64,000 nucleotides of DNA. Origin: a bacterium. Its GTDB lineage: Bacteria > Electryoneota > Electryoneia > Electryoneales > Electryoneaceae. The stretch covers positions 5,152,001 through 5,216,000 of the forward strand of contig OY769902.1 in NCBI GenBank assembly GCA_963669175.1, in the 5' to 3' direction. Of the stretch, positions 11,514 through 64,000 are shown one piece after another (positions within the stretch are counted from its first letter, which is position 1; every line of letters begins with the position of its first letter). The notes under the pieces are model-generated. The model was not told the DNA's origin. It worked only from the letters and a program-made list of their open reading frames with translations, and did not search any database. A program made the translations under genes and the position numbers.

Positions 11514-11963
11514 GGGACACTCCTCGTGTTGTCTCTTCCCTGGGCAGCAGGAAAGAACGCATGTGTGCCAATGGGGTATAAGGATCGGCTGCCTCCGCAA
11601 GCAGGGAGGTTTTGGTCAGCAAGCAACACTCCTGTACCATTTCCGGTCGATGGTACCCCGTAAGAAAAACGGGCTCATGAATCTTGCCGCATGCTCAACC
11701 GTAGTCAAAAACATGCGAAAAGATCACAAACATGGCTCCGGCAGCAGTGGATAAATCCACTAACCCCCGTGAAAAAATCGCAAAAACTGTTCCGGTGGCA
11801 ATAAAGAAGAGGGTAGAATCATTTTTTCATATAAATCATACTGTTATCAGCCATTCCTTGAGAGAAGAGTACAGGACAAAGTTCAATACGCGCCTTATCC
11901 TGTAGCGAAACAATACTCAAGATGTAGCATGTAGATCACAGGGCTGTGCAGATTACGCCTGAT

Positions 11964-12419
11964 TTAAGGCTGCCTGCGAACCAGGATAATCGTGCCTGCA
12001 AGGGCAATAATGATGCAGAGCGGTGAGTACAACTGGCGATTCAGTGTCATAAAAGGATCGAGTGAGCCGGCAAAAACCGGCAGGTAGCCAGCCAGTCCAC
12101 GAAGGGCGAAAATGCTGACAATGGCGATCATGAGGATCTGCCAGAGCTTGCGTGGCCCCGGCAGCTCCTTCTCCCACGCCCAGAGACTGAACATGACTCC
12201 CATTGCCATGAAAATCAGCCCGAAGAGCAAAGATAGCAACTGTGGCGGCACAGGACCGGGATCACCGACAAACGTGGACATGAACTGCTCGGCGTCATTG
12301 GCAGGCCAGAAGCTACCAAATCCCCAGACCACATGAAGCAATCCGATCATCACCAGCAGCATGGTGACAACGATGGCAATATTCCTGGATAACAACGGAA
12401 CCTCCATTTTAGACGGCAC
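11964..12419 (-). CDS. Small membrane protein (DUF3995-like)
   Basis: 'GLLHVVWGFGSFWP', 'IFALRGLAG', 'LYSPLC' pattern; about four hydrophobic segments. Confidence 0.7.
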   Translation of the reverse strand: MPSKMEVPLLSRNIAIVVTMLLVMIGLLHVVWGFGSFWPANDAEQFMSTFVGDPGPVPPQLLSLLFGLIFMAMGVMFSLWAWEKELPGPRKLWQILMIAIVSIFALRGLAGYLPVFAGSLDPFMTLNRQLYSPLCIIIALAGTIILVRRQP

Positions 12420-14449: not shown

Positions 14450-14696
14450 GCGCCTCCTCGTTGAGTTTCAGCAAGCGTAGCCGTGATCAAACTGAAAACA
14501 ACAACAGGCTGAAAGTAATGACAGTTCAGGTTGCTCAGCAGTTCCGATTAAGAACAACGACAGGATTGATCAGGGTTCTTGCAGGTATACTTGCAAACAG
14601 CAACAGGATAGATCAGGGGTCTTTGCAGGTCCACCGAAGGTGGGCCACTTGAATAGCGCGGCTTGTAAGCGCCGGGAATACGATCTTACACCACAA

Positions 14697-14941
14697 GGGA
14701 AATCGGGACTGCTACTCCATTTCGCCAGATGGAATGCTACTACCAGTTGACGCAGTTCGATAAATCTCCATGATTATCTATTTCCGTGATAACGTATAGC
14801 GAAATAGGTAGCTGTCCCAGGATTTTCCGGATAATCTCTCGCAAAAGCAGGCGAAAAATCCGGTACAGTCACCTTTTCACATACCCTGGCTTGACTGTCT
14901 TGCATTTGTGGAAATGAAAAGGTGACAGTCCCATTTTTCGC
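14697..14941. repeat. 'GGGACTG/CAGTCCC' palindromic repeat doublets
   Basis: Similar to 5155-5420, e.g. GCAGGCGAAAAATCCGGTACAG...GAAAAGG(T/C)(G/A)ACAGTCCCATTTTTCGC. Confidence 0.8.
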
Positions 14942-16072: not shown

Positions 16073-18333
16073 GTTTTCTCCTTAATTAATATTTTAAATG
16101 TTACGCCTTCTGTTTCGTTTTTCTTCACCGCAATTGATGCCGCCATACTCTCTACTATTCTCTTCACATGATACAAACCAACTCCTGACCCGTCTGTTGT
16201 TGTATAACCCATGTTATAAATATTTTTAATTTCCTCTTCTTTTATTCCCACTCCATCATCCTTAAATGATATTTCTATATCACCTTTTTCTGTTTTTTGT
16301 GTCTTTATTACCATCACCTTTGCTTTTGCTTTTCTAGCATTTGACACCATATTGTCAATTATAATGTTTATTTCTATTGGTTTTACTTCTATTTCGTACT
16401 TATCCTTATTGTCATCCACATACTTTATCCGCATTTTTTTATCATTTATTGTTGGTATTATATTTTGGACATATTCCTTAATATAATTATTAATATCGAT
16501 TATTGTTGCTTCTGTTTTCAAATTAAACCTTGCTTTTGTTGCAAATATGGCTATGTTTGATATTTTTTTTACCTCTAATCCTATGATGTCTATTATATTC
16601 CATAGTTCTTCATTACTTATTGGTATTTTTCTTTGTGTACGTAGTGATATTCCTTTTAATTTATTTTCTATTGTTCCTGCATAAATACCTACATGATGTA
16701 ACAGGCTAATCATTTCTTTGTAATCTGATGTATTTATTGATTTTAAAAATAAATTTTCAGATATTGTTGTTTTTAATTCTCTTGTCGCCTCTTGTGCTTT
16801 TTTCTCGGCTTCTTTTGCTAATCTGTCAGCCTCTTCCTTCGCCTTCCTCAAATATTCTACTTTTTCTATTGCTTTCTCAGTCACACCGAGTAAATTTTCA
16901 TCACCTATTTCTTTTGCTATTGCCTTTAAATTCTTTACTACACTATTAGCGCTATTTATTTGGCTTGCCTCAATAATATCGATAAAATTTTCAGGCACCT
17001 GAAAATCCACGATATTTTCTGAGTTTGTCAATGTCGCTAACAAATCTATTACTCTTGATGATAATGGTGTATTATTATCATCTTCTATACTGAAGCCCCA
17101 TTGTTGAACATCAACAACATACTTTTCAAGCATTTCTATTGCTTGGAATACAAATTTCGTAAGTTCATCATAATATTCATTCTTAATTAAGCCATCTCCC
17201 CTACTAGACGTTTCAACAAAATGATTATTGCCTGCTTCTGTTATCTCTACCCTACCTATTATTTCTCCTGTTCCAAGTCGGCTTCTTTGCTTTCTGCTTT
17301 TTCTTTTATCTATACCCATTGGATCACTATTGGGCTCACCATACGGATAGACCCTAAAACCGTTTTTGTAAAGAAATAAATTCCCATATAGTCTTGATGC
17401 CATACCCATCTGTTTTGTAAAAGTATATTTTGCCTTTCGACTAAGATAATAAAGAGTTATTTTAATATTATGCAATAATTCATATTCACTATGTTGCTTT
17501 ATTTTATATATTAATGTTCCCCCATCAACTAGAGTTGTCACAATAATATCATTATTGTTTTTTATTCTTGAACATATTTTCGTTGTTTTTAATCCTAATT
17601 GTTCAAATATGAAATTTTTTACCTTTCCGTTTACTTTATCCTTATAATCATCAAATTCATTATCTTTATCCAATTCATCTGAAACCCTTATTATTATGAT
17701 AAAATTCTCATCGTTATCATTTATTGGATTTATTAATTTAGAAAGCGAATCTTTGAGTTTTAATAATTTATCCCTAGACCATTTACTCCTTAATTCTGAT
17801 ATTTCCAGTACAGTACCATATGGCCGAGGATATTTTCTTGCTCCGTTTTCCATATACTCCACTGGAATATCCACAAATTCCTTTTGTGCATCCACTTCAA
17901 AGTTTTCCCAATTAGTACGTAATATTTGAGTTTTTGACGTACCTCTTTTTGTTGTTTCTAGATATAACTTCTTTCCTAATCGGTCACAAGAAAATCTACC
18001 AATACCTTTTGCTCCTGCAAAAGGTCTATTTGCAAATATATTATCTCGATAATCATAATTATTATCTTCTGTCCCATCTTTTTTTGCCGAATAAGCAACA
18101 AATAACCACTTCTTAGAAATATCTTCCCGACTCATTCCTTTACCATTATCACTTATAATAATTCTCGCTTTATTTGTATTTAAATATTTGAATTCTATAA
18201 TAACTTCGGAGGCATGAGCATCAAAGGAGTTTTTTACAAGCTCAAATATTGCAACATAATCATCTGTAATAAGATCACGCCCAATTATATCTTTTAAGGC
18301 TGAACTAATTCTATATTGAAGATTTTCACTCAC
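16069..18333 (-). CDS. Hsp90/MORC-like GHKL ATPase fused to a C-terminal histidine kinase
   Basis: N-terminal 'ELVKNSFDA', 'DNGKGMS', 'GAKGIGRFS'; coiled coil; H-box-like 'LLHHVG'; 'DNMVSNA', 'DDGVGI', 'GYTT..GSGVGLY'. GTG start at 18333 with GAGGAG RBS, overlapping the dcm stop. Confidence 0.85.
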   Translation of the reverse strand: MSENLQYRISSALKDIIGRDLITDDYVAIFELVKNSFDAHASEVIIEFKYLNTNKARIIISDNGKGMSREDISKKWLFVAYSAKKDGTEDNNYDYRDNIFANRPFAGAKGIGRFSCDRLGKKLYLETTKRGTSKTQILRTNWENFEVDAQKEFVDIPVEYMENGARKYPRPYGTVLEISELRSKWSRDKLLKLKDSLSKLINPINDNDENFIIIIRVSDELDKDNEFDDYKDKVNGKVKNFIFEQLGLKTTKICSRIKNNNDIIVTTLVDGGTLIYKIKQHSEYELLHNIKITLYYLSRKAKYTFTKQMGMASRLYGNLFLYKNGFRVYPYGEPNSDPMGIDKRKSRKQRSRLGTGEIIGRVEITEAGNNHFVETSSRGDGLIKNEYYDELTKFVFQAIEMLEKYVVDVQQWGFSIEDDNNTPLSSRVIDLLATLTNSENIVDFQVPENFIDIIEASQINSANSVVKNLKAIAKEIGDENLLGVTEKAIEKVEYLRKAKEEADRLAKEAEKKAQEATRELKTTISENLFLKSINTSDYKEMISLLHHVGIYAGTIENKLKGISLRTQRKIPISNEELWNIIDIIGLEVKKISNIAIFATKARFNLKTEATIIDINNYIKEYVQNIIPTINDKKMRIKYVDDNKDKYEIEVKPIEINIIIDNMVSNARKAKAKVMVIKTQKTEKGDIEISFKDDGVGIKEEEIKNIYNMGYTTTDGSGVGLYHVKRIVESMAASIAVKKNETEGVTFKILIKEKT

Positions 18334-53546: not shown

Positions 53547-54396
53547 GTTTCACTCCATGTTACGACTTCTATCTTCACCCACTACTTTTAAACATAGGGA
53601 CATGCAATCCCGACAAAGGAATGCTAGTGGACCGATCCATAAGGATCGAGGTGTTCTGCGCCATAGTCGGGTTGGCTGCAAGGCGATTTCATGCAGGTGC
53701 AGCCGGGGCGTATTGCTACGCAGCAGGAAGCCGCCTGATGCCCTAACCCTGTTCTGAACTTGTTGCCGTATTAGCACGTCTGAAGCTGGCGACGGTTTCC
53801 AACATACTGACCCGATTTTCGTCTATTGGAGCCATCTTTCCCGGCACCGTTCCGGTAGATTTTTGAAAGAGCTACCAGGCGAATTCTGCCTTATAAACGT
53901 AGACTACGTTAGCGCTGAATTACACAACAAAACAGCGAAGCACCTATGATTTTCAGTGATCAGGTAGATGACGCCAGCAGGTTGATTTCATCCGAAAGAT
54001 TTGAATTTACAGTACTCTCCCCGGTCCACCAGATCGCTTTCCTGCGTGAAGTCGCATTGGAGCCTACGCGCTCGTGACAAACAGAATACCTCACTTTATG
54101 TGATTCGTTCCACTCACAGTATCGTAAACATTGGATGATACGATCTCGCGTAAAGACGTCCCCCTCTCCGGCTTCAGGTTTACACCTGTACGGTATGACG
54201 AGCTGAACTATAAGATCATGAAAACCGATATAGCAGTTCACAACCCGGAGAAATACAGATTTATCTCCCTTCTATATCGCCCTGTAAAGGTTCTCTCATC
54301 ACCTATCCTGTACCAAGTTGCTCCACCGTAAGTCAGGCATTGTGAAACTGGCCTCTATTGTAAATCACCTCTGGGAGTGTTCAGCTCTGAAAAGAC

Positions 54397-54425
54397 TTGA
54401 CTTAGCCTCTGGAACCGCTTATTAT
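54397..54425 (+). promoter_or_regulatory. Sigma70 promoter of tRNA-Lys
   Basis: TTGACT-17 bp-TATTAT immediately upstream of the tRNA. Confidence 0.75.
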
Positions 54426-54439
54426 CGGTGTCCAAACGA

Positions 54440-54515
54440 GCGCCATTAGCTCAATTGGTAGAGCAGCGGACTCTTAATCCGTTGGTTCGGGGTTCGAGTC
54501 CCTGATGGCGCACCA
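54440..54515 (+). tRNA. tRNA-Lys (CTT)
   Basis: Acceptor stem GCGCCAT/ATGGCGC, D arm AGCTCAATTGGTAGAGC, anticodon arm GCGGA-CTCTTAA-TCCGT, T loop GGTTCGAGTCC, encoded CCA; 76 nt. Confidence 0.97.
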
Positions 54516-54518
54516 TAG

Positions 54519-54559
54519 AAAACAAAGGCTTGCGAGAATATCGCAGGCCTTTTTGTTTT
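54519..54559 (+). terminator. Terminator after tRNA-Lys
   Basis: AAAACAAAGGCTTGCGA-GAATA-TCGCAGGCCTTTTTGTTTT. Confidence 0.8.
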
Positions 54560-54908
54560 CTATGGGGCAGCGTTGGGGCAATAGTCTCCATTCGGGAGTT
54601 TTCTTTGTCAAAATTGTGATTCCATTTGTGAGCGCTACAAAGGAGTTGTTACATTTTCAACCGATTACCATTTAGTTATTTCAGAACATCATTTCATGTT
54701 GCTAATTAGGAAAGAATGACAATAACCCTGTTAGTCCTCATTGAGCTATCCACATAAAGCATAAGTTGTTTTGATACTGGCTAACGTCTAACTTATTACT
54801 ATACGTGAAAGTATAGTAATACTTTTAGGACAATATCCATACGACAATCCGGTAATGAAAGTTTATTTCTACAGGGGGATTAAGCTTCCATAAGGGAGAT
54901 CAAAAATC

Positions 54909-57900
54909 ATGGGTCAAAGTTTCTTCGAAGTACCTATTCTGAACTCACCTTACGACTACCCATCCCAACACTGGCAGTTGGATGATACAGGACAACCGAC
55001 TGGACTTATCATAGATGCACGACGTCCCGTTGACCTGATTACACCTATCCCTAAACCTCGAAAACAGAAGAAGAAAACCGGGCAAGAATTACTTGGGCTC
55101 AGTTACGAAGAAACAATGGACCTGGCAACAAAAGACCAGGAATACGATCCAACCCCAATTATTAACGCCCTGCGCCGAAACGTCGACCAGTGGCGCAGAA
55201 TACCTAATCCTGCTGACTGGAAGGTTACGCCAGAAACACAGAGATTATTACTACATTGGAGAAGACCTAGAGCGGACTGGTCCTACATCTGCCCTTTCTT
55301 TTGCCAGGTTGAAGCGGTGGAGACCGCTATCTGGCTAACTGAAGTTGCCCCGAACGCTGGAAAAAGTGGCATTCAGTTCCTGGAACATCTGCAGAACGCC
55401 AACAACGATGCAAATCCTGATCTAAACCGCCTGGCTTTAAAGCTGGCGACTGGAGCCGGCAAGACCATGGTGATGGCGATGATCATCGCCTGGCAAACGA
55501 TCAATGCAGTACGTCACCCGCAGAGCACACGCTTCACACGTGGCTTCCTTGTTGTAACTCCAGGTCTGACAATCAAGGATCGCCTCCGTGTTCTACAGCC
55601 TAACGACCCGGACAGCTACTATAAGACCCGCGAGATCGTACCACCGGACCTTCTGCCAGAGATTCGCCGCGCCAAGATTGTCATTACCAACTACCATTCT
55701 TTCAAACAACGCGAGCGTTTGGAGATATCCAAAGGCAATCGTGCACTATTGCAGGGACGTCATGGTGAAGAGCTTGACACTGTCGAATCCGAAGGACAGA
55801 TGGTGCACCGTGTACTGCCCAGCTTGATGGGTATGAAGAATGTCCTGGTTCTGAATGACGAAGCACATCACTGTTACCGGGAGCGAGTAGGGTCAGATGA
55901 TGTTGGCGAACTGAAAGGTGACGAAAAAGACGAAGCGAAGAAGAATAACGATGCTGCACGTCTATGGATATCCGGAATAGAGGCGGTGAACCGCGTACTT
56001 GGTGTAAGAAGGGTATTCGATCTGTCAGCAACCCCGTTTTTCCTGCGGGGGTCTGGTTATGCTGAAGGCACTCTTTTCCCTTGGACCATGTCTGACTTTT
56101 CGCTAATGGACGCGATTGAGTGCGGTATTGTCAAGCTGCCTCGTGTTCCTGTGGCTGATAATCTTCCTGGTAGTGAAATGCCAAAGTTCCGCAACCTGTG
56201 GGACCATATCGGCAAGAAAATGCCTAAGAAGGGACGTGGTAAAGCCAAGAACCTGGACCCACTCAGTATCCCTGTCGAGCTGCAAACGGCGCTTGAAGCG
56301 CTATACGGCCACTACACAAAAACATTCGATCTATGGAAGAAAGAGGGCATCTCGGTCCCACCCTGCTTCATCGTTGTTTGCAACAACACCTCTACATCAA
56401 AGCTGGTTTACGATTACATCTCAGGTTTCGAGCCACTCGACGAAAACGGTGATCCGAAGCAGCCGAACAATGGCCGCCTCCCGCTGTTCCGCAACTACAA
56501 TGAGGATCTGGTCCGTCTACCCCTTCCGCGCACCTTACTGATTGACAGTGAACAACTTGAGTCCGGTGATGCTCTTGATGATAAGTTCCGAAAGATGGCA
56601 GAACCTCAAATTGAGCGTTTCAGGCGAGAGATAATCGAACGCACTGGCGACCGAAAACAGGCGGAAAACATCTCCGACGCTGACTTGCTGCGTGAAGTAA
56701 TGAACACAGTAGGGCAGGCTGGGCGACTTGGTGAATCCATCCGTTGCGTGGTGTCGGTATCCATGTTGAGTGAAGGGTGGGACGCTAACACAGTCACTCA
56801 CATTCTGGGCGTCCGGGCTTTCGGAACTCAGCTTCTGTGTGAACAGGTTATCGGACGAGCCCTCCGTCGCCAGTCATACGAGCTGAACGAAGAAGACAAA
56901 TTCAACGTCGAGTATGCCGATGTCCTGGGCATACCCTTTGACTTTACCGCCAAACCTGTCGTTGCCCCTGTGCAATCACCTCGGGAAACCATTACAGTCA
57001 AAGCAATGCGTCCTGAACGGGATCATCTGGAGATTCGCTTCCCACATGTCCAGGGATATCGTGTGGAAATGCCCACGGAAAAGCTGACAGCAAAATTCAA
57101 TGAGGATTCTGTTCTAGTCCTGACCCCCGAACTGGTTGGTCCGTCTCAGACCAAAGATGCAGGAATCTTGGGCGAAGAGATCGAGCTGAACCTTGTACAT
57201 ACGGGCGACCTGCGCAGGTCCACCCTGATCTACCACCTGACCACACGGCTGCTGAACACCAAGTGGCGAGACCATGGTGACGAGCCCAAATACCACCTGT
57301 TCGGGCAGCTCAAGCGCATTACTAAAGAGTGGTTGGACACGTACCTGGTCTGCAAGGGTGGCACCTTTCCTGCACAGTTGATGTATCAGGAACTGGCTGA
57401 TATGGCATGCGAACGGATCACAGCGGGGATTACGCTGGCCATGCAAGGAGAGTACCCGATAAAGGCAGTCCTCGATCCCTACAATCCGGTTGGCTCCACC
57501 AGCCATGTCCTATTCAACACGTCCAAACGGGATCGTTGGCAAACATCGCCCAGGAAGTGCCATATCAACTGGGTGATTCTGGACAGCGACTGGGAAGCGG
57601 AGTTCTGTCGTGTGGCGGAGGATCACCCCAAAGTGCTGGCCTACGTGAAGAACCACAACCTGGGGCTCAACGTCCCGTATGTGATGGGAGCAATCAATCG
57701 CACGTACATCCCAGACTTCATCGTGCTTGTGGATGACGGTCATGGCCCGGAAGACCCCTTGCACCTGATTGTCGAGATCAAGGGCTATCGTCGTGAAGAC
57801 GCCAAGGTAAAAAAGCAGACCGTGGAGACCTACTGGGTACCAGGTGTGAATAACCTGAAGACATTTGGAAGGTGGGCATTTGCTGAGTTTACTGATGTGT

Positions 57901-58019
57901 TCGAGATGCAGGCTGACTTTGCAGAAAAGATTGAGGAAGAGTTTGACACGATCATGGCGAAGGCGTTAGATCAACAGTCCCCAGCTTCTGGCAGATCAAT
58001 TTCAGGATTGGAGGCATAA
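54909..58019 (+). CDS. res: Type III-like restriction enzyme Res subunit (SF2 helicase + PD-(D/E)xK nuclease; BPTD_3080-like)
   Basis: 'PILNSPY', 'FFCQVEA', 'KLATGAGKT', 'NDEAHH', 'DLSATP', 'MLSEGWD', 'EQVIGRALR', nuclease 'YIPDF...VEIKG'. Confidence 0.92.
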   Translation: MGQSFFEVPILNSPYDYPSQHWQLDDTGQPTGLIIDARRPVDLITPIPKPRKQKKKTGQELLGLSYEETMDLATKDQEYDPTPIINALRRNVDQWRRIPNPADWKVTPETQRLLLHWRRPRADWSYICPFFCQVEAVETAIWLTEVAPNAGKSGIQFLEHLQNANNDANPDLNRLALKLATGAGKTMVMAMIIAWQTINAVRHPQSTRFTRGFLVVTPGLTIKDRLRVLQPNDPDSYYKTREIVPPDLLPEIRRAKIVITNYHSFKQRERLEISKGNRALLQGRHGEELDTVESEGQMVHRVLPSLMGMKNVLVLNDEAHHCYRERVGSDDVGELKGDEKDEAKKNNDAARLWISGIEAVNRVLGVRRVFDLSATPFFLRGSGYAEGTLFPWTMSDFSLMDAIECGIVKLPRVPVADNLPGSEMPKFRNLWDHIGKKMPKKGRGKAKNLDPLSIPVELQTALEALYGHYTKTFDLWKKEGISVPPCFIVVCNNTSTSKLVYDYISGFEPLDENGDPKQPNNGRLPLFRNYNEDLVRLPLPRTLLIDSEQLESGDALDDKFRKMAEPQIERFRREIIERTGDRKQAENISDADLLREVMNTVGQAGRLGESIRCVVSVSMLSEGWDANTVTHILGVRAFGTQLLCEQVIGRALRRQSYELNEEDKFNVEYADVLGIPFDFTAKPVVAPVQSPRETITVKAMRPERDHLEIRFPHVQGYRVEMPTEKLTAKFNEDSVLVLTPELVGPSQTKDAGILGEEIELNLVHTGDLRRSTLIYHLTTRLLNTKWRDHGDEPKYHLFGQLKRITKEWLDTYLVCKGGTFPAQLMYQELADMACERITAGITLAMQGEYPIKAVLDPYNPVGSTSHVLFNTSKRDRWQTSPRKCHINWVILDSDWEAEFCRVAEDHPKVLAYVKNHNLGLNVPYVMGAINRTYIPDFIVLVDDGHGPEDPLHLIVEIKGYRREDAKVKKQTVETYWVPGVNNLKTFGRWAFAEFTDVFEMQADFAEKIEEEFDTIMAKALDQQSPASGRSISGLEA

Positions 58020-58801
58020 TGAATCCAGATGTGGGAGGATTTGGCAAAAATGCCATAAACTTGTCTCGTAATCCTCTAGGGATAATAGCTCTATTCATAG
58101 TGTTAGTGTATGGTATGGCTACATTGGTAATTATTTTTGCAGATACACTGACAGAAATAGAACGCACATTGTTAATAATATTTCTAATTGGTTTTCCATT
58201 GATTGTATTTATTGTTTTCGTTTGGCTTGTAGTAAAACATGGTCCAAAACTATATAGTCCAGGAGATTATAGGAAGGATGAAAACTATCTCAAAGCCGTA
58301 AGGACGGCCACACTATTGTCAGCAGCATCATATAAGCAAGGGATTGAGGATAAACCGTTAGAAATAGATACGATATTACAGTCATTTGAGAGAAGAGACT
58401 TAATCACTCATAATAACACATTTGACTGGACAAATGAAATATTATGGGTCGATGATAGACCAGAAAATAATATCTACGAAAGAAAAGCCTTTGAATCTAT
58501 AGGCTTACAAATAACTTTAGCATTAAACACCGAGCAGGCTTTGCAATTTCTTTCGCGAAACAAGTATGCAGTAGTCATATCTGATATGGGAAGAAAGGAA
58601 GGACCAAGAGAAGGATATGTGTTGCTAGATACTATGAGGCAAAAATCCGACAATACGCCGCTAGTTTTCTACGCAGCATCAAATCTTCCGGAACATAAAC
58701 AAGAAACAATGGAGCACGGAGGGCAGGGGTGCACAAATAACCCAACCGAGTTGTTTAACATCGTGACTGATTTAGTACGTAAAAGAAAGCAGGAATTATA
58801 A
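58019..58801 (+). CDS. Two-TM membrane protein with C-terminal receiver domain
   Basis: 'RNPLGIIALFIVLVY' plus a second TM; REC 'ILWVDD.PENN', 'VISDMGR', 'PLVFYA'; coupled to the res stop; AT-rich. Confidence 0.8.
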   Translation: MNPDVGGFGKNAINLSRNPLGIIALFIVLVYGMATLVIIFADTLTEIERTLLIIFLIGFPLIVFIVFVWLVVKHGPKLYSPGDYRKDENYLKAVRTATLLSAASYKQGIEDKPLEIDTILQSFERRDLITHNNTFDWTNEILWVDDRPENNIYERKAFESIGLQITLALNTEQALQFLSRNKYAVVISDMGRKEGPREGYVLLDTMRQKSDNTPLVFYAASNLPEHKQETMEHGGQGCTNNPTELFNIVTDLVRKRKQEL

Positions 58802-58940
58802 TGGCCAAGGCGAAGAACCCGATGACCGAAGAGAAACTGACACACGAAGAGGCGAAGCGGACGAACATTCCGCTGGCAGAGTATTCCTGATTGCTAGTCC
58901 GTGCAGACATAGCGTTGATGCAAGTGGCATATGAACGACA
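58801..58940 (+). pseudogene. Degenerate 5' fragment of mod
   Basis: Translates MAKAKNPMTEEKLTHEEAKRTNIPLAEYS*LLVRADIALMQVAYER versus MAKNPKSIETLTHEEAKRKNIPPAEYSSLLEDKDQASVRVAYER at 60390. Confidence 0.88.
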
Positions 58941-58958
58941 AGGGCAGTCTAAGCTGTC

Positions 58959-59249
58959 GACTTCATCAGGCTTGTGAAGCACGGGCTAGGAAGATCCGCT
59001 CCATCTAGTCGTCGAGATCAAGGGGTATCGACGTGAGGACGCCAAGGTGAAAAGCAGACCATGGAAACCTACTGGGTTCCCGGTGTGAACAACCTGAAGA
59101 CATTTGGACGGTGGGCATTTGCCGAGTTTATCGACGTGTTCAAGATGCAGAGTGGGTTTGAAGAACTTATTGAGGAAAAATTCAAGGACATAATTAGTGA
59201 ACACTTCAAGGGTGATGGTGTAACTGATAATAGGGAACCACCAGACTAA
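58959..59249 (+). pseudogene. Degenerate 3' fragment of res
   Basis: EDPLHLVVEIKGYRREDAKVK (frameshift) QTMETYWVPGVNNLKTFGRWAFAEF matches the res C-terminus (~57714-57950). Confidence 0.9.
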
Positions 59250-59261
59250 GGGAGGTTTAAG

Positions 59262-59612
59262 ATGGATTTGCTAAGACAACTACTTAGTAGAGAAGTAATC
59301 CCTGACAAAATCAAGTTCATTGATAGTTTACCAACTAATGATTGGGATATGGAAATGAATGGTATTGGGGATGGTGATCCAGATAAGGATAAAATATTTA
59401 TTAAATATGTTAAACGTAATGGAGAAGGAAATCTTGAATATTTCGGAGAGTGTCACGGGCCAGTAGATTCAATCAATTGCAGTAAACTATCAATAAAACA
59501 ATGGATAGAATCTGTCAGTAGTGATGCAATCGCTTTTAGCTGGGATAATGATTCAAGCGAACACTATAACGATTTCGAAGCTAGAATATGGCGCGAATAT
59601 AACGATAATTAA
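59262..59612 (+). CDS. Hypothetical acidic protein
   Basis: 116-aa ORF with GGGAGG RBS, AT-rich, no recognised motif. Confidence 0.65.
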   Translation: MDLLRQLLSREVIPDKIKFIDSLPTNDWDMEMNGIGDGDPDKDKIFIKYVKRNGEGNLEYFGECHGPVDSINCSKLSIKQWIESVSSDAIAFSWDNDSSEHYNDFEARIWREYNDN

Positions 59613-59627
59613 GCTGTAGGTGTTATT

Positions 59628-60284
59628 ATGGCTGTTCCAACACATCGTGAAGATTGTCAGACTCAATTGTTCCCATGGCGCTGTCCAGATTGTGGCGATA
59701 GGGTTTACTTCTTTGGCTGCACATGTGGAAGCCGAGTATTCTTTGATACTCCCGGTCCACCATGGGATCTGCATAGCGATCACTGCATACACTTTTTGAT
59801 TCGTGAGTTGAGAGAAATTAGAGGTTTAAATGACAATGAAATCGTAAGAATGGTGCGAGAGCATGCTCGTGAGACAAACGTGACTCCCAGCAAAGATATT
59901 CACGACTACATTGACAATCAGCATGGTCCAAAGAAGCTTTCTGTCCTTGAAGTATTGCCAGGCGAAGATGACCAGATGACACTTGGAGTTGTGCGCGAAG
60001 TAAACAAAGTGAATTTCGAGAAACGCTTTGGAATTGAAGGAACACCGTTAGGAAGACAATTCCTAGGAGCGTTCAAGCATGGTGTATGGAAAGAGATCAT
60101 TATTCGTGAACCTGATAAAGGCAAAGGGAAAGAGCCGCGCTACCAGTTCACTTTTTATGTAAAAGACAACGTATTTGATTCTTCAATACTGCGTCGTGGT
60201 AATATAGTAATTGTCCATTTAAAGATTATTAGAGTAATGGGAAATAAGCGTTTCTGGGTATCAGAGGACTTCAGGGAAGCATAG
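59628..60284 (+). CDS. Hypothetical protein with N-terminal Cys/His zinc-binding motif
   Basis: 'CPDCGDRVYFFGCTCGSRVFFD..GPPW..H..HC'; beta-rich C-terminus; AGGTG RBS. Confidence 0.7.
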   Translation: MAVPTHREDCQTQLFPWRCPDCGDRVYFFGCTCGSRVFFDTPGPPWDLHSDHCIHFLIRELREIRGLNDNEIVRMVREHARETNVTPSKDIHDYIDNQHGPKKLSVLEVLPGEDDQMTLGVVREVNKVNFEKRFGIEGTPLGRQFLGAFKHGVWKEIIIREPDKGKGKEPRYQFTFYVKDNVFDSSILRRGNIVIVHLKIIRVMGNKRFWVSEDFREA

Positions 60285-60389
60285 CTGAGGCAAGTTTGAA
60301 AGAAATTTCCAACCGTAGAGGTTGTTGCACTGAATGGTACTAATCAACTGTTAAAACCAAACCACTGATAACTCCCGAAGAGGATCAGG

Positions 60390-63287
60390 ATGGCGAAGAA
60401 CCCGAAGAGCATTGAGACACTGACACACGAAGAGGCCAAGCGGAAGAACATACCGCCGGCGGAGTACTCGTCGCTGCTGGAGGATAAAGACCAGGCATCG
60501 GTGAGGGTGGCGTATGAGCGTCGGAACCGGGATCTGGACCCGCAGCTTGTGTGGAGGGGCAAGGACGAGCAGGACTGGTCCGACCTAGTTGTGCAAGCTC
60601 CACCATTGTTCATCCAGGAGAAGATTCACCCCAAGGTGTTGATCGACGACCTGAAGGCGGTGGACAGTGACGGCAACAGGGTACGTCTGCCGGACGAGGA
60701 TGATCAGATCGACCTGTTCGGGGATTTCAACGGCATCGCGGACGAGAACGCCAAGACCGAGTTCTACCAGCATGACGCGCACTGGTCCAACAGGATGATC
60801 CTGGGTGATAGCCTGCAGGTGATGGCGTCGCTGGCGGAACGGGAAGGCCTACGCGGCCAAGTTCAGTGCATTTATATCGACCCGCCTTATGGCATCAAGT
60901 TCAATTCGAATTTCCAATGGTCCACCACCACCCGGGACGTAAAAGACGGCAAGGCGGACCATATCACTCGTGAACCTGAACAGGTGAAGGCCTTCCGGGA
61001 TACTTGGCGCGACGGCATTCACTCCTACCTCACCTACCTGCGTGACCGGCTTACCGTTGCACGGGATTTGCTGACGGAATCAGGCTCGGTTTTTGTGCAG
61101 ATTGGAGATGAAAATGTTCATCGAGTACGGGCGATGATGGATGAAATATTTGGAGACAGCAACTTTGTAACATTAATATCAGTTGCAAAAACCAAAGGCG
61201 CTACTTCATTGTTATTACCAAACACATTAGATTATATAATATGGTATTCTAAAAATTATGAACAGTGTAAATATAGAAAATTAGTAACTGTTAAATCGCT
61301 TGGACAAGAAGGAACAAGTAAATACTCTCATGTTGAGTTTCAGGATTTAAAAAAACGCACTATAGAAAAATCTGAGCTTTTTGGCGTTACTAGTTTACCA
61401 AACTCATCAAAATCGTTCTTATACGAAGATTTGACCTCGCAAACTGGTGGGGATACTACCAGATTTTCCATACATTTTGATGGGAGAAAGTTTATACCAT
61501 CTAAAAGAAGGGGTTGGCGAACACACGTTGATGGCATAGAGCGTTTAAGAAAATCATCACGTCTTTTATCGCACACAAATGTATTGATGTTTAAACGTTA
61601 TCTTGAAGACTTTTCAGCTAACTATATGAATAATATTTGGACAGATACATCATCTGGATCAAGTGTCTCAGATCCCAAAGTCTACGTAGTTCAAACTAGA
61701 ACAAAAATTATTGAACGGTGTGTCCTGATGACCACTGATCCCGGCGACTTAGTTCTCGACCCGACTTGTGGGTCAGGTACAACAGCTTACGTTGCCGAGC
61801 AGTGGGGACGCCGGTGGATCACCATTGACACGTCGCGCGTGGCCCTGGCGTTGGCGCGGGCGCGGATCATGGGAGCACGGTATCCCTACTACACACTTGC
61901 CGACAGCCGTGAGGGGCAGCTCAAGGAAGCAGAACTGTCGCGTGCGGAACCGACCACAGCGCCCACGCATGGGGATATCCGGCAGGGTTTTGTGTACGAG
62001 CGTGTTCCCCACATCACCCTTAAATCCATCGCGAATAATGCGGAAATTGATGTGATTTGGGATAAATGGCAGCAGCACATCCAGCCACTCCTCGAGCAGT
62101 TGGGAAAAGTGAGCAGTGGACAGTGGATAGTGGACAGTGGAACGACAGTAGATAGTGACCAGGAGGCAGTGGTCAGTAACACTGACCACAAGCCACTAAC
62201 CACTAACCACTTGGAGGAGTGGGAGGTGCCGCGTGACTTCCCCGAGGAGTGGCCCGAGGACGCCAAGCCGTTGCATGCTGAATTCTGGAAGCTGCGGATT
62301 GCCCGGCAGAAGGAGATCGACGCCTCCATTGCCGCCAAGGCGGACTACGAGTACCTCTACGACAAACCCTACGAGGACAAAAAGAAAGTCCGTGTCGCCG
62401 GGCCGTTCACCGTGGACAGCCTCTCCCCGCACCGCACGTTGACCATGGGACCCGATGACGAACTGATCGACCCCAGCAAGCCCACCAAACAGGCTGAAGG
62501 CGACGATGACGGTTTCGTGGCCATGATCCTGGAAAACCTGCGCACCTCCGGCGTCCAGCAGGTCCACAAGGGCGACAAGATCGAGTTCACGTCACTGACA
62601 CCCTGGCCGGGCAGCTACATCTGCGCAGAAGGCGTATTCCACGAGGGCAACGCGGAAGACGGCACCAAACGGAGGGCTGGAATCTTCATCGGGCCGGAGT
62701 TCGGGACCGTGGATCGGCAACACCTGGTACGCGCCGCGAAAGAGGCTGCCGACGCTGGCTACGATGTCGTGATCGCCTGTGCCTTTAACTTCGACGCCCA
62801 CGCCACCGAGTTCGACAAACTGGGCCGTATCCCCGTGCTGAAGGCCCGCATGAACGCCGACCTGCACATGGCCGAAGACCTGAAGAACACAGGCAAGGGT
62901 AACCTGTTTGTCATCTTCGGTGAACCCGATATCGTGATCAAGGATGCTGAAGGCGGGATGATCCTGGTGCAGGTGAAAGGTGTAGACGTCTTCGATCCGA
63001 GTACAGGCGAGATCCGGAGTGACGATACTGACGGCATCGCCTGCTGGTTCATAGACACGAACTACAATGACGAGAGCTTCTTCGTCCGTCACGCTTACTT
63101 CCTCGGCCAGAACGATCCCTACAAAGCCCTGAAAACGACCCTGAAAGCCGAGATCAACCAGGACGCCTGGGACACGCTGAACAGCGACACCTCCCGGCCG
63201 TTCCCCAAACCCGATACCGGCCGCATAGCTGTCAAGGTCATTAACCACCTCGGGGACGAGGTAATGAAGGTATATCAGGTAAACTAG
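60390..63287 (+). CDS. mod: Type III-like adenine DNA methyltransferase (Mod)
   Basis: 'NRMILGDSL', 'IYIDPPYGI', AT-rich TRD (~61140-61710), 'GDLVLDPTCGSGTT', C-terminal 'RIAVKVINHLGDE'. Confidence 0.93.
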   Translation: MAKNPKSIETLTHEEAKRKNIPPAEYSSLLEDKDQASVRVAYERRNRDLDPQLVWRGKDEQDWSDLVVQAPPLFIQEKIHPKVLIDDLKAVDSDGNRVRLPDEDDQIDLFGDFNGIADENAKTEFYQHDAHWSNRMILGDSLQVMASLAEREGLRGQVQCIYIDPPYGIKFNSNFQWSTTTRDVKDGKADHITREPEQVKAFRDTWRDGIHSYLTYLRDRLTVARDLLTESGSVFVQIGDENVHRVRAMMDEIFGDSNFVTLISVAKTKGATSLLLPNTLDYIIWYSKNYEQCKYRKLVTVKSLGQEGTSKYSHVEFQDLKKRTIEKSELFGVTSLPNSSKSFLYEDLTSQTGGDTTRFSIHFDGRKFIPSKRRGWRTHVDGIERLRKSSRLLSHTNVLMFKRYLEDFSANYMNNIWTDTSSGSSVSDPKVYVVQTRTKIIERCVLMTTDPGDLVLDPTCGSGTTAYVAEQWGRRWITIDTSRVALALARARIMGARYPYYTLADSREGQLKEAELSRAEPTTAPTHGDIRQGFVYERVPHITLKSIANNAEIDVIWDKWQQHIQPLLEQLGKVSSGQWIVDSGTTVDSDQEAVVSNTDHKPLTTNHLEEWEVPRDFPEEWPEDAKPLHAEFWKLRIARQKEIDASIAAKADYEYLYDKPYEDKKKVRVAGPFTVDSLSPHRTLTMGPDDELIDPSKPTKQAEGDDDGFVAMILENLRTSGVQQVHKGDKIEFTSLTPWPGSYICAEGVFHEGNAEDGTKRRAGIFIGPEFGTVDRQHLVRAAKEAADAGYDVVIACAFNFDAHATEFDKLGRIPVLKARMNADLHMAEDLKNTGKGNLFVIFGEPDIVIKDAEGGMILVQVKGVDVFDPSTGEIRSDDTDGIACWFIDTNYNDESFFVRHAYFLGQNDPYKALKTTLKAEINQDAWDTLNSDTSRPFPKPDTGRIAVKVINHLGDEVMKVYQVN
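62108..62211. repeat. In-frame inverted heptamer-repeat insertion in mod
   Basis: AGTGAGC AGTGGAC AGTGGAT AGTGGAC AGTGG ... GTGGTCAGT-AAC-ACTGACCAC ... CCACTAA CCACTAA CCACT. Confidence 0.8.
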
Positions 63288-63308
63288 ACCGAACAAAGGA
63301 AACGGATT

Positions 63309-64000
63309 ATGGCTAAGGAAATCAAGGCTAGAAAGGTGTTTTTAAAGAATGTATTCAAGATGTGGTTTAGAATCCCAAGCTACCAGCGGCCATATGTATG
63401 GGAAAAAGACCAGATCAGTGATTTGCTTGATGATATCACATATGCCCAGAGTAATAGTCCAAACGCTGAGTATTTTCTTGGTTCCTTTGTCTTTCAGTCA
63501 ATTACCGATATCAATGACGACAATCTGCAGGTTGTAGAGAACGATCTTCTAGATGGCCAACAGCGAATCACTACTTTGATTCTCATTTTTGCCGTTATGA
63601 GGGATTTATTTGAAGATAACGAGCGAAAAAAGAAGTGTCAGAACCTACTGTATCAGCAAGCTGACATTGATGAGGGCATTCCAGAGCGTCCCCGGCTGTT
63701 ATACGATATCGATTCGACGACTCCGAAGTTCATTGACCAATATATAACGAATCCTGGGCATACATGTCCAAAAGAGGAATCATATGAATTTGACGCAGAT
63801 GTTTCTAAGTATAAGAATATCACGGTTAAGAATCTTGCTAATGCAATAAAAGTGATTTATGGACTCCTGTGCAAATACGCTCAAGAGGAAATCGTCGAAT
63901 TATTCCAGTACATGCTTAACAAGGTGCTAGTGATATATGTATATACAGAAGATTTGGAAGATGCTTTCCGTCTGTTTACTATCTTGAATGATCGAGGTGT
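63309..64000 (+). CDS. DUF262 (GmrSD/ParB-Srx-like) domain protein, 3'-truncated by window; absent from the ORF track
   Basis: Hand translation: MAKEIKARKVFLKNVFKMWFRIPSYQRPYVW...YFLGSFVF...LLDGQQRITTL...DAFRLFTILNDRG, i.e. the (QR)/DGQQR/F..LN.RG motifs; AAAGGA RBS. Confidence 0.9.
   Translation, partial: MAKEIKARKVFLKNVFKMWFRIPSYQRPYVWEKDQISDLLDDITYAQSNSPNAEYFLGSFVFQSITDINDDNLQVVENDLLDGQQRITTLILIFAVMRDLFEDNERKKKCQNLLYQQADIDEGIPERPRLLYDIDSTTPKFIDQYITNPGHTCPKEESYEFDADVSKYKNITVKNLANAIKVIYGLLCKYAQEEIVELFQYMLNKVLVIYVYTEDLEDAFRLFTILNDRG

Follow-up and report, generated by a model that had tools for sequence, protein, structure and literature searches.

In the classical Type III restriction-modification (R-M) systems, exemplified by EcoP15I, the mod gene typically precedes res, the Mod subunit hemimethylates the target, and cleavage requires two inversely oriented unmethylated sites; in Type III systems, Mod is the subunit that recognizes the target, and Res is active only when complexed with Mod. 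Some R-M loci also carry genes of another kind, as do the Type I loci of Campylobacter, which harbor the rlo genes. More generally, defense genes are found inside Hma, BREX, DISARM as well as Type I R-M loci, a regularity denoted 'guilt-by-embedding' in a preprint that mentions PrrC in EcoprrI, states that the origin of embedding 'remains to be explored' and brings up a genomic-sink idea (Payne, Hughes, Fineran, Jackson, bioRxiv 10.1101/2024.01.29.577857); in the searched text of that preprint, 'DRT type III' is the sole context of 'Type III', and the words 'recombination', 'remnant' and 'hotspot' are absent. In one Type I R-M system, DarTG2 lies between hsdS and hsdR, a position described as 'a potential recombination hotspot' (PMC12255303), and for a cluster of tandem paralogs, the 3' region of an open reading frame (ORF), the intergenic region and the 5' region of the next ORF have been described as the unit of evolution (PMC2568036). 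Here we examine a 64,000-nucleotide stretch (positions 5,152,001 to 5,216,000) of contig OY769902.1 from a bacterium of the family Electryoneaceae (assembly GCA_963669175.1), hereinafter the window, which encompasses an R-M operon of the BPTD_3080 family with two different cargo blocks between res and mod and, between these blocks, a nearly fused pair of remnants, the 5' end of a mod gene and the 3' end of a res gene.

The operon (54909-63287) is encoded in the plus strand in the order res, cargo A, mod 5' remnant, res 3' remnant, cargo B1, cargo B2, a spacer of 105 nucleotides (nt) and mod. The res gene (54909-58019, plus strand) encodes a full-length restriction endonuclease of 1036 amino acids (aa), in which an SF2 helicase domain is combined with a nuclease region at the C-terminus and which covers positions 2-970 of the 970 positions of the BPTD_3080 family profile (NF046055, 1347 bits, cut-off 800). 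The ResIII helicase domain is readily recognized (PF04851, E 5.3e-9), the nuclease domain scores slightly below the cut-off (PF19778, 22.1 bits, cut-off 23.4), and the PADLOC REase_III models match only weakly (best E 4.9e-5). The mod gene (60390-63287, plus strand) encodes a full-length N6/N4 DNA methyltransferase of the Type III class, of 965 aa (PADLOC MTase_III PDLC03632, 1370 bits; PF01555, E 1.9e-33). The genome contains one full res, that of the window, plus the remnant, and no other. As judged from sequence, the system is a Type III-like R-M system of the BPTD_3080 family located in a tRNA-Lys defense island. In contrast to the classical, EcoP15I-like order, res precedes mod in the window and in all 128 external loci in which both gene ends were found. 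These loci come from two collections: genome loci retrieved with a profile of six res proteins (the best 80 of at least 582 confirmed matches, with 62-75% aa identity, from many phyla) and metagenome loci retrieved with the last 336 Res residues as the query (the best 80 of at least 522 matches). Among the pattern matches listed for the genome collection, 582 of 600, again from many phyla, encode a relative.

The mod 5' remnant (58801-58945, plus strand) is a pseudogene that corresponds to mod codons 2-48. Both the repeat finder and pairwise alignment match 129 nt of it (58809-58937) to 60392-60520 with 73.6-74% identity, and tblastn gives 61.7% identity to mod residues 2-48; the ATG at 58801 overlaps the stop codon of cargo A (TAATG), and an in-frame TGA (58888-58890) follows after 29 codons. 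The res 3' remnant (58959-59249, plus strand), likewise a pseudogene, corresponds approximately to res residues 936-1012. The segment 58959-59182 aligns with 57714-57943 in three blocks (224 nt aligned, 82.1% identity) separated by gaps of 5 nt and 1 nt, both of which break the frame; the pairs reported by the repeat finder are 57811-57943/59050-59182 (84%), 57744-57813/58984-59053 (80%) and 57714-57739/58959-58984 (81%). Beyond 59182, the remnant has a C-terminal tail of its own that ends with a stop codon at 59247-59249, and the last codons, which are still open (ORF 59061-59249, 62 aa), match positions 936-969 of NF046055 (E 2.6e-7). With nucleotide profiles built from 68 loci, nhmmer detects the res 3' remnant at E 5.4e-53 and the mod 5' remnant at E 5.1e-10, so the two are not chance similarities. 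The alignments of the two remnants leave approximately 13 nt (58946-58958) that are assignable to neither gene; the joint is fixed only to this precision, and divergence hides any microhomology in it.

Each cargo block has native-looking junctions on both sides, namely, TAATG between res and cargo A, TAATG between cargo A and the mod remnant, a distance of 12 nt from the stop codon of the res remnant to B1, and the full mod after B2. The cargo genes are AT-rich, with G+C contents of 0.37 (A), 0.34 (B1) and 0.43 (B2), as against 0.52 for res, 0.53 for mod and 0.49 for the whole window; in the spacer before mod (60285-60389, 105 nt), the value is 0.42. An earlier note on this DNA, made from the sequence alone, had described two different AT-rich cargo blocks, each between a res 3' end and a mod 5' end, and had characterized the internal remnants as diverged, degenerate and almost directly fused; the description is borne out, and the alignments and nhmmer agree with the positions that it gave for both remnants. 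The last 20-25 codons are entirely different between the full res (57944-58019) and the remnant (59183-59249). The same stretch also differs entirely between the res ends of L102 and L106 (hereinafter, L and G denote external loci and genomes, respectively), two close relatives with unlike contents between res and mod, when these are compared by eye. On its left side, the variable unit thus seems to begin within the res tail, not at the res stop codon.

The interval between res and mod, hereinafter the slot, was measured in all external loci that contain the end of res together with the start of mod. Of the 67 such genome loci, 22 have a gap of no more than 150 nt and 45 a gap of 0.28-3.8 kb; of the 61 such metagenome loci, 29 have a gap of up to 150 nt and 32 a larger one, so that the slot is occupied in 77 of the 128 loci, by passengers of 0.15-3.8 kb. 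Extra copies of gene ends inside the slot were detected with the nucleotide profiles in three genome loci (L038, L053 and L111) and in none of the metagenome loci. The layout of L038 is that of the window: res, two small ORFs, a mod 5' remnant, res pieces, a PIN-domain gene and mod. The first cargo of L038 consists of two overlapping ORFs of 72 and 106 aa without an assigned family, the mod 5' remnant occupies 11919-12149, and res is represented by two separate pieces, approximately residues 741-784 and 988-1016, as expected if several deletions occurred in a longer copy. The scars in the other two loci are partial. In L053, a mod 5' remnant (14617-14746) follows an MNT module and precedes two ORFs of 99 and 77 aa, with at most 32 nt of res after it, and in L111, a weak res-tail remnant (16121-16191, E 2.8e-4) immediately precedes an MNT-HepT pair. 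The scar is, then, not confined to the genome of the window. The breakpoints, which the earlier note had expected to be shared, differ between the window, L038, L053 and L111: in profile coordinates, mod is kept to approximately nt 132 in the window, 202 in L038 and 139 in L053, and res resumes at position 87 in the window and 243 in L038 of the 347-nt profile. Such differences are what random deletions would give. Given that only 3 of the 77 occupied external slots are scarred, accretion that leaves scars is not the usual route of cargo arrival; multi-module slots are mostly scar-free (for example, L043, L062 and L072), and either most of the cargo arrives otherwise or scars erode quickly.

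A two-copy state was observed in the bacterial family to which the host of L102 belongs. When 401 genomes of this family were searched with the last 761 nt of the L102 res, 17 matched, and two further res 3' pieces were found. In G358, the res 3' piece stands alone. In G390 (locus L230), a full res-slot-mod operon is followed, 1.35 kb on, by four pieces of a second copy, namely, a res 3' end (221 nt, 95% identical to the res of the same genome), the first ~91 codons of an ORF6N gene as cargo, and a mod 5' end (123 nt, 95%) fused to the last 89 alignable nt of mod (97.8%). Altogether, the pieces are 89-98% identical to the resident operon copy, and the resident slot contains the same ORF6N gene, with the middle deleted. 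G390 harbors a second copy of the whole operon that is under piecemeal removal by several deletions, and one intermediate product of this process has the res3'-cargo-mod5' shape. On the other strand beside the decaying copy (L230, contig G390:C8, 8400-13200), Bro/KilA-like and methylase-like fragments are recognizable by eye. A Type I R-M remnant (hsdS-like, RhuM-like and hsdM-like) is likewise recognizable by eye there; the region looks like a graveyard of defense genes.

For five of seven remnants, the nearest match among the 68 loci is the full copy of their own host. In the window, the res 3' remnant is 70.4% identical to the resident copy and 67.8% to the next best one, and for the mod 5' remnant, the respective values are 70.5% and 59.0%. 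The comparison of remnants with full genes had been proposed as a check in the earlier note, and its outcome counts in favor of the two-operon scenario outlined below. Among the differences between the remnants and the full genes of the window, 18 of 40 are synonymous in the res 3' remnant (fraction expected from random changes 0.20, p 3e-4) and 15 of 34 in the mod 5' remnant (expected 0.23, p 4e-3); the corresponding counts are 17 of 26 for the mod 5' remnant of L053 and 19 of 28 for a res 3' remnant of L081 that lies outside the slot. Therefore, at least one of the two lineages diverged as a working gene, under protein constraint. By our rough expectation, ~38% of the differences would be synonymous for an old in situ duplicate, with one copy constrained and the other one decaying, and ~77% if both copies were working. 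The remnants of L053 and L081 rather resemble genes that diverged while still working. We considered the synonymous enrichment as a proof of a foreign donor and rejected it as decisive, given that the value for the window, ~45%, also fits an old in situ duplicate.

Together, these observations suggest, with about an even chance in our estimation, that two related operons of the BPTD_3080 family gave rise to a chimera at this locus, the second having been duplicated or acquired beside the first and the middle then deleted. Under this scenario, operon 1 would have been res1-cargoA-mod1 and operon 2 res2-cargoB1B2-mod2, the two standing head to tail in the island, with operon 2 being an old duplicate or an acquired relative. 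A deletion of ~5.5 kb, from approximately codon 48 of mod1 to approximately codon 936 of res2, would have left a working res1, a working mod2, both cargo blocks and the dead mod5'::res3' joint, so that cargo would have been stacked incidentally, as operons merged and decayed, and not by a dedicated cassette mechanism. The remnants, their native junctions to each cargo block, the variability of the slot and the decaying two-copy state of a relative are observed in the sequences; the succession of events and the origin of operon 2 are our inference. The loss would be tolerable because specificity resides in Mod and Res acts only together with Mod; res1 and mod2 would therefore make a self-consistent system, and losing mod1 would also remove mod1-directed cutting. 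Merging followed by deletion is favored because an operon copy is decaying in G390 and the res remnant of L038 is in separate pieces; for the same reason, the acquisition of a whole second system with subsequent deletion, which the earlier note had offered as the alternative, is better supported than the circle route that it had put forward.

Several observations weigh against this scenario. Cargo A and cargo B are unrelated, so that simple duplication in situ would require later replacement of the cargo. Neither two long res matches nor two long mod matches were found in any of 161 loci (160 external ones and the window) with flanks of 8-10 kb; intact tandem operons are rare or short-lived. 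The two copies in G390 are not adjacent, with 1.35 kb of unrelated sequence between them. No close relative of the window locus was found that would show an intermediate, the best matches being 75% identical at the aa level over res in the genomes and 76% over the last 336 residues in the metagenomes; a genome of the same genus (G001) yielded weak matches only. The synonymous fraction of ~45% fits an old duplicate and an acquired, subsequently decayed relative alike, which leaves the source of operon 2 between the two. Finally, the insertion of a partial fragment in one step would yield the same final sequence.

In such a one-step insertion, linear DNA carrying the res2 3' end, cargo B and mod2 would have joined the resident operon homologously within mod and illegitimately at approximately nt 145 of the resident mod, and no complete second operon would ever have been present, a process known as homology-facilitated illegitimate recombination. 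The observed order requires no more than a homologous and an illegitimate join, the lack of an intact tandem in the 161 loci is readily accounted for, donors are at hand, in that the same metagenome runs contain contig pieces of related, ~80-85% identical systems (differing in 19-35 letters per 120-158 nt), and the scars of L053 and L111 are one-sided. However, the two-piece res remnant of L038 would need further deletions, the mod 3' piece of G390 is left unexplained, any microhomology is unreadable in the ~13 unassignable nt of the joint, and the breakpoint inside the full mod was not located. All things considered, we regard this route as rather unlikely. A misassembly, in which the operons of two strains were joined at their common res 3' sequence, is a further alternative, in favor of which the Logan contigs of two runs (X1 and X2) of one sample break within the res 3' remnant, at 59066-59095, probably because other BPTD_3080 operons in the metagenome have common words there. 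These contigs match the window exactly over 54484-59095 and 59066-62383, overlap by 30 nt and have equal depths (22.4 and 20.4 in X1, 42.7 and 43.0 in X2), which speaks against a wrong join, although the runs may be the source data of the assembled genome and hence do not constitute independent support; a third run, X3, contains almost none of this stretch. The mod5'::res3' joint, however, is well within the first of the two exact contigs, the genome is assembled as a single 5.45-Mb contig, and L038 has the same architecture, which makes an artefact exceedingly improbable.

The explanation put forward in the earlier note, that a circularized res3'-cargo-mod5' piece integrated by a single homologous crossover, with the conserved gene ends serving as the arms of an integrase-free, integron-like array, appears very unlikely to us. 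The slot is, indeed, highly variable, with 77 of 128 occupied, scars recur in the window, L038, L053 and L111, and a stand-alone piece of the res3'-cargo-mod5' shape exists in G390. In L111, moreover, the remnant lies directly before the MNT-HepT pair, the MNT protein is 89.6% identical to the slot MNT of L053, with the res genes of these loci being 76% identical at the DNA level, and the remnant itself matches the res tail of L053 best (70% of 71 nt), above that of its own host; the pattern fits slot-to-slot movement within that clade. The gene ends are not, however, specially conserved. Across 2080 locus pairs, the mean nucleotide identity is 0.69 for the last 300 nt of res and 0.67 for the first 300 nt of mod, compared to 0.69 for the rest of res and 0.70 for mod nt 300-900, and among the windows near the slot, the lowest values are those of the terminal window of res (0.64) and the initial window of mod (0.60). 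The 23 pairs with a common cargo family are not closer to each other in the gene ends than all pairs are (-0.03 to +0.04 per window), that is, cargo is shared without shared arms. In L102 (ORF6N) and L106 (empty), the closest pair with unlike slot states (res 88.8% identical), identity holds at 0.82-0.92 as far as the end of res and at 0.85-0.93 from the start of mod onward, without a dip or the signature of an imported arm. Furthermore, the breakpoints differ, only 3 of the 77 occupied external slots are scarred, none of them among the 61 metagenome loci that have both gene ends, and the piece in G390 carries a mod 3' end, which marks it as a deleted whole operon rather than the product of a circle. 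RecA-mediated crossover would be very inefficient at ~20% divergence. No circular or looped-out form was seen in the Logan contigs, which cannot show rare variants; a single candidate joint between the two res 3' copies, from 57811 to 59112 (side of 36-39 nt, 80% likeness), was rejected as a looped-out form because it is out of register with the repeat spacing of 1239-1240 nt, and most likely comes from the res of other organisms. The locus resembles an integron in being a one-directional stack of unrelated passengers in one operon; unlike in an integron, the slot contains no integrase, attC-like repeats or attI, scarred stacks are rare, and the integrase of the island lies ~9 kb past the window end. 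No integrase domain was detected in A, B1, B2 or the whole res-mod interval, and the repeat finder revealed no inverted-repeat family flanking the cargo blocks. The arms, the breakpoints and the scar frequency all run contrary to an integron-like array, which thus finds no support in the tests that were run. A broader proposition, that the slot is a true exchange site in which modules move with the res tail and the mod head as recombination arms, so that the family would act as an integrase-free cassette carrier that spreads defense and toxin-antitoxin modules across phyla, with scars as rare imprecise products, strikes us as unlikely as well.

The variation of the slot contents among homologs, which had been predicted on the basis of the window alone, is pronounced. 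The 45 occupied genome slots contain 98 ORFs of at least 50 aa, 39 of which belong to a Pfam family at E 1e-4 or better; 68 of the 98 are on the operon strand, and some of the other 30 may be spurious, coming from GC-rich loci. Many slot ORFs begin 3 nt before the res stop codon. The families include PIN, MNT with HepT/HEPN, HicA/HicB, BrnT, Fic (3 loci), GmrSD (5), YhcG/DUF1016 and RhuM, as well as Bro-N (2), ORF6N (2), NYN (2), AAA_21 with DUF4276, AlbA_2/HATPase_c_4, Uma2, DUF1828 (2) and others. On the res tree of 68 loci, 16 changes between the empty and the occupied state are required, and shuffled states require 18.7 on average (sd 1.7), with 43 of 500 shuffles giving 16 or fewer. Occupancy of the slot is almost random on this tree, and turnover is nearly as fast as the tree resolves.

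Like the embedded systems described previously (bioRxiv 10.1101/2024.01.29.577857), the passengers are inside a defense operon, the three in the window have the orientation of the operon, and the contents vary between homologous loci; the slot families also overlap those reported there as embedded (GmrSD-like, HEPN, NYN, partners of ABC-ATPases and RelE-type toxin-antitoxin modules). Unlike the cases presented in that text, the host in the window is a res-then-mod Type III-like system, and scars made of gene ends trace the joining of two cargo blocks. The slot of DarTG2 (PMC12255303) is similarly a slot within an R-M operon that accommodates different defense or toxin-antitoxin modules in different genomes, in another R-M type and another position; remnants of flanking genes are not described in the passages of that paper on DarTG2. 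The res3'-cargo-mod5' piece spans the 3' end of a gene, an interval and the 5' end of the next gene, as does the unit described in PMC2568036; there, however, the ends come from tandem paralogs of one species, and here they come from two different R-M genes, and the evidence of exchange, as opposed to deletion, is weak. The name 'BPTD_3080' was found in no paper, and in titles and openings of abstracts we found no published account of such scars; subscription journals were outside these searches, and the supplements of the preprint could list Type III cases. The principle of nesting is already known, and the scars, which are rare, are of moderate value as physical traces of its possible origin. 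As the window, L038, L053, L111 and G390 suggest, at least some multi-cargo operons may have been built when two versions of an operon merged and the redundant part between them was deleted, a modest hint as to how bacterial defense loci grow; the logic of Type III systems should tolerate such merging because specificity travels with Mod. Nesting has already been used to find new anti-phage systems, and with the BPTD_3080 family, a res-then-mod type of operon that is widely transferred can be added to those worth searching for embedded candidates. In the window, these are a putative membrane-anchored receiver-domain protein and a pair that consists of an orphan and a protein with a zinc finger and an OB fold.

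Cargo A (58019-58801, plus strand), the start of which overlaps the res stop codon, encodes a protein of 260 aa that is hydrophobic in its N-terminal part and ends in a receiver (REC) domain (PF00072, E 2.8e-9, residues 141-242); the Atlas clusters to which it is assigned are named 'response regulator family protein' (score 0.99). A homolog of 256 aa with 47.7% identity is present in an Escherichia coli record (NZ_CP134663.1; L206, 7884-10673), where its neighbors are an AAA_15/AAA_21 ATPase, a transposase fragment and a GMP synthase gene, a context that weakly links cargo A to variable, defense-like islands. Cargo B1 (59262-59612, plus strand), an orphan ORF of 116 aa, starts after GGGAGG, 12 nt past the stop codon of the res remnant; it has no family in Pfam, PADLOC, NCBIfam or PHROGs, and a search of 5.8 billion proteins returned only B1 itself. 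Cargo B2 (59628-60284, plus strand; 218 aa) combines a Cys/His-rich N-terminal part with a C-terminal part that resembles an OB fold. Its four homologs show 31-38% identity, with H6, C10, C19, C22, C31, C33, H49 and C53 invariant; Foldseek ranks OB folds of the SSB/PriB kind as the best matches of the AlphaFold model (pLDDT 77.9), with a lowest E of 9.6e-4 and a target TM-score of 0.46-0.65. The single relative of B2 in the phylum (G056:C458, 27-30% identity) has no res or mod nearby on its 2.2-kb contig. No PADLOC model matches A, B1 or B2, and a defense role of these proteins would be a guess from their position only. Homologs of the three are absent from the slots of the 160 other loci; a 32-residue match to the zinc finger of B2, downstream of the mod of L098, is the only exception among these loci.

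The operon is the first module of an integrative defense island of ~19 kb. The left edge of the island is a tRNA-Lys (CTT) gene (54440-54515, plus strand; ARAGORN; Rfam RF00005, 73 bits), which is the sole Rfam match at E up to 1 over 54000-64000, and the operon starts 394 nt past it. Downstream of mod, a GmrSD-type (Type IV) restriction gene begins (63309-64000, plus strand; PF03235, E 5.9e-30) and continues beyond the window to a total of 584 aa; the full gene (L115:310-2064) encodes both PF03235 and PF07510. It is followed by HamA and a helicase with a DEAD/ResIII domain, a combination that we read as Hachiman-like. Next come a UvrD-like helicase of 689 aa, an ORF of 210 aa and, ~9 kb beyond the window end, a tyrosine integrase (L115:9122-10174; PF00589, E 8e-33). 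The res-mod interval contains no terminator-like site on the plus strand, and the scans gave numbers not above the shuffled expectation (16 promoter-like sites compared to 13.5, and 10 terminator-like sites compared to 9.0). The middle of mod is AT-rich, with a G+C content of 0.38 in 61000-61750 versus 0.53 in the whole gene, and on a contig of a relative from runs X1 and X2, 60922-62301 is replaced by 1270 other letters; this part looks like a swapped target-recognition region.

An annotated BPTD_3080 operon is also present on a mobilizable plasmid of Pseudomonas amygdali (NZ_CP123223.1; L207, 5639-13064), in the order res, a gene for a 68-aa hypothetical protein, methyltransferase and a UvrD-helicase gene, with the start of the latter abutting the mod stop codon. 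The UvrD-like helicase is common to L207 and the island of the window and may be a recurrent partner of the BPTD_3080 family. A lone res 3' match in G054:C200 turned out to be the contig end of a normal system and was discarded as a scar. Remnants are found outside the slot as well. The res 3' remnant of L081 (10001-10243), 84% identical to the res end of its host, lies ~100-150 nt upstream of the full res and adjoins an apparent gene for ribosomal protein S14, as recognized by eye; the L081 system seems to have replaced an older one or to have been inserted beside it. In L036 (10001-10551), a res 5' remnant (residues 11-48) and a 96-aa ORF are located upstream of the full res, and this truncated, ORF6N-like ORF matches the C-terminal part of the slot ORF6N proteins (44-49% identity, E ~1e-19).

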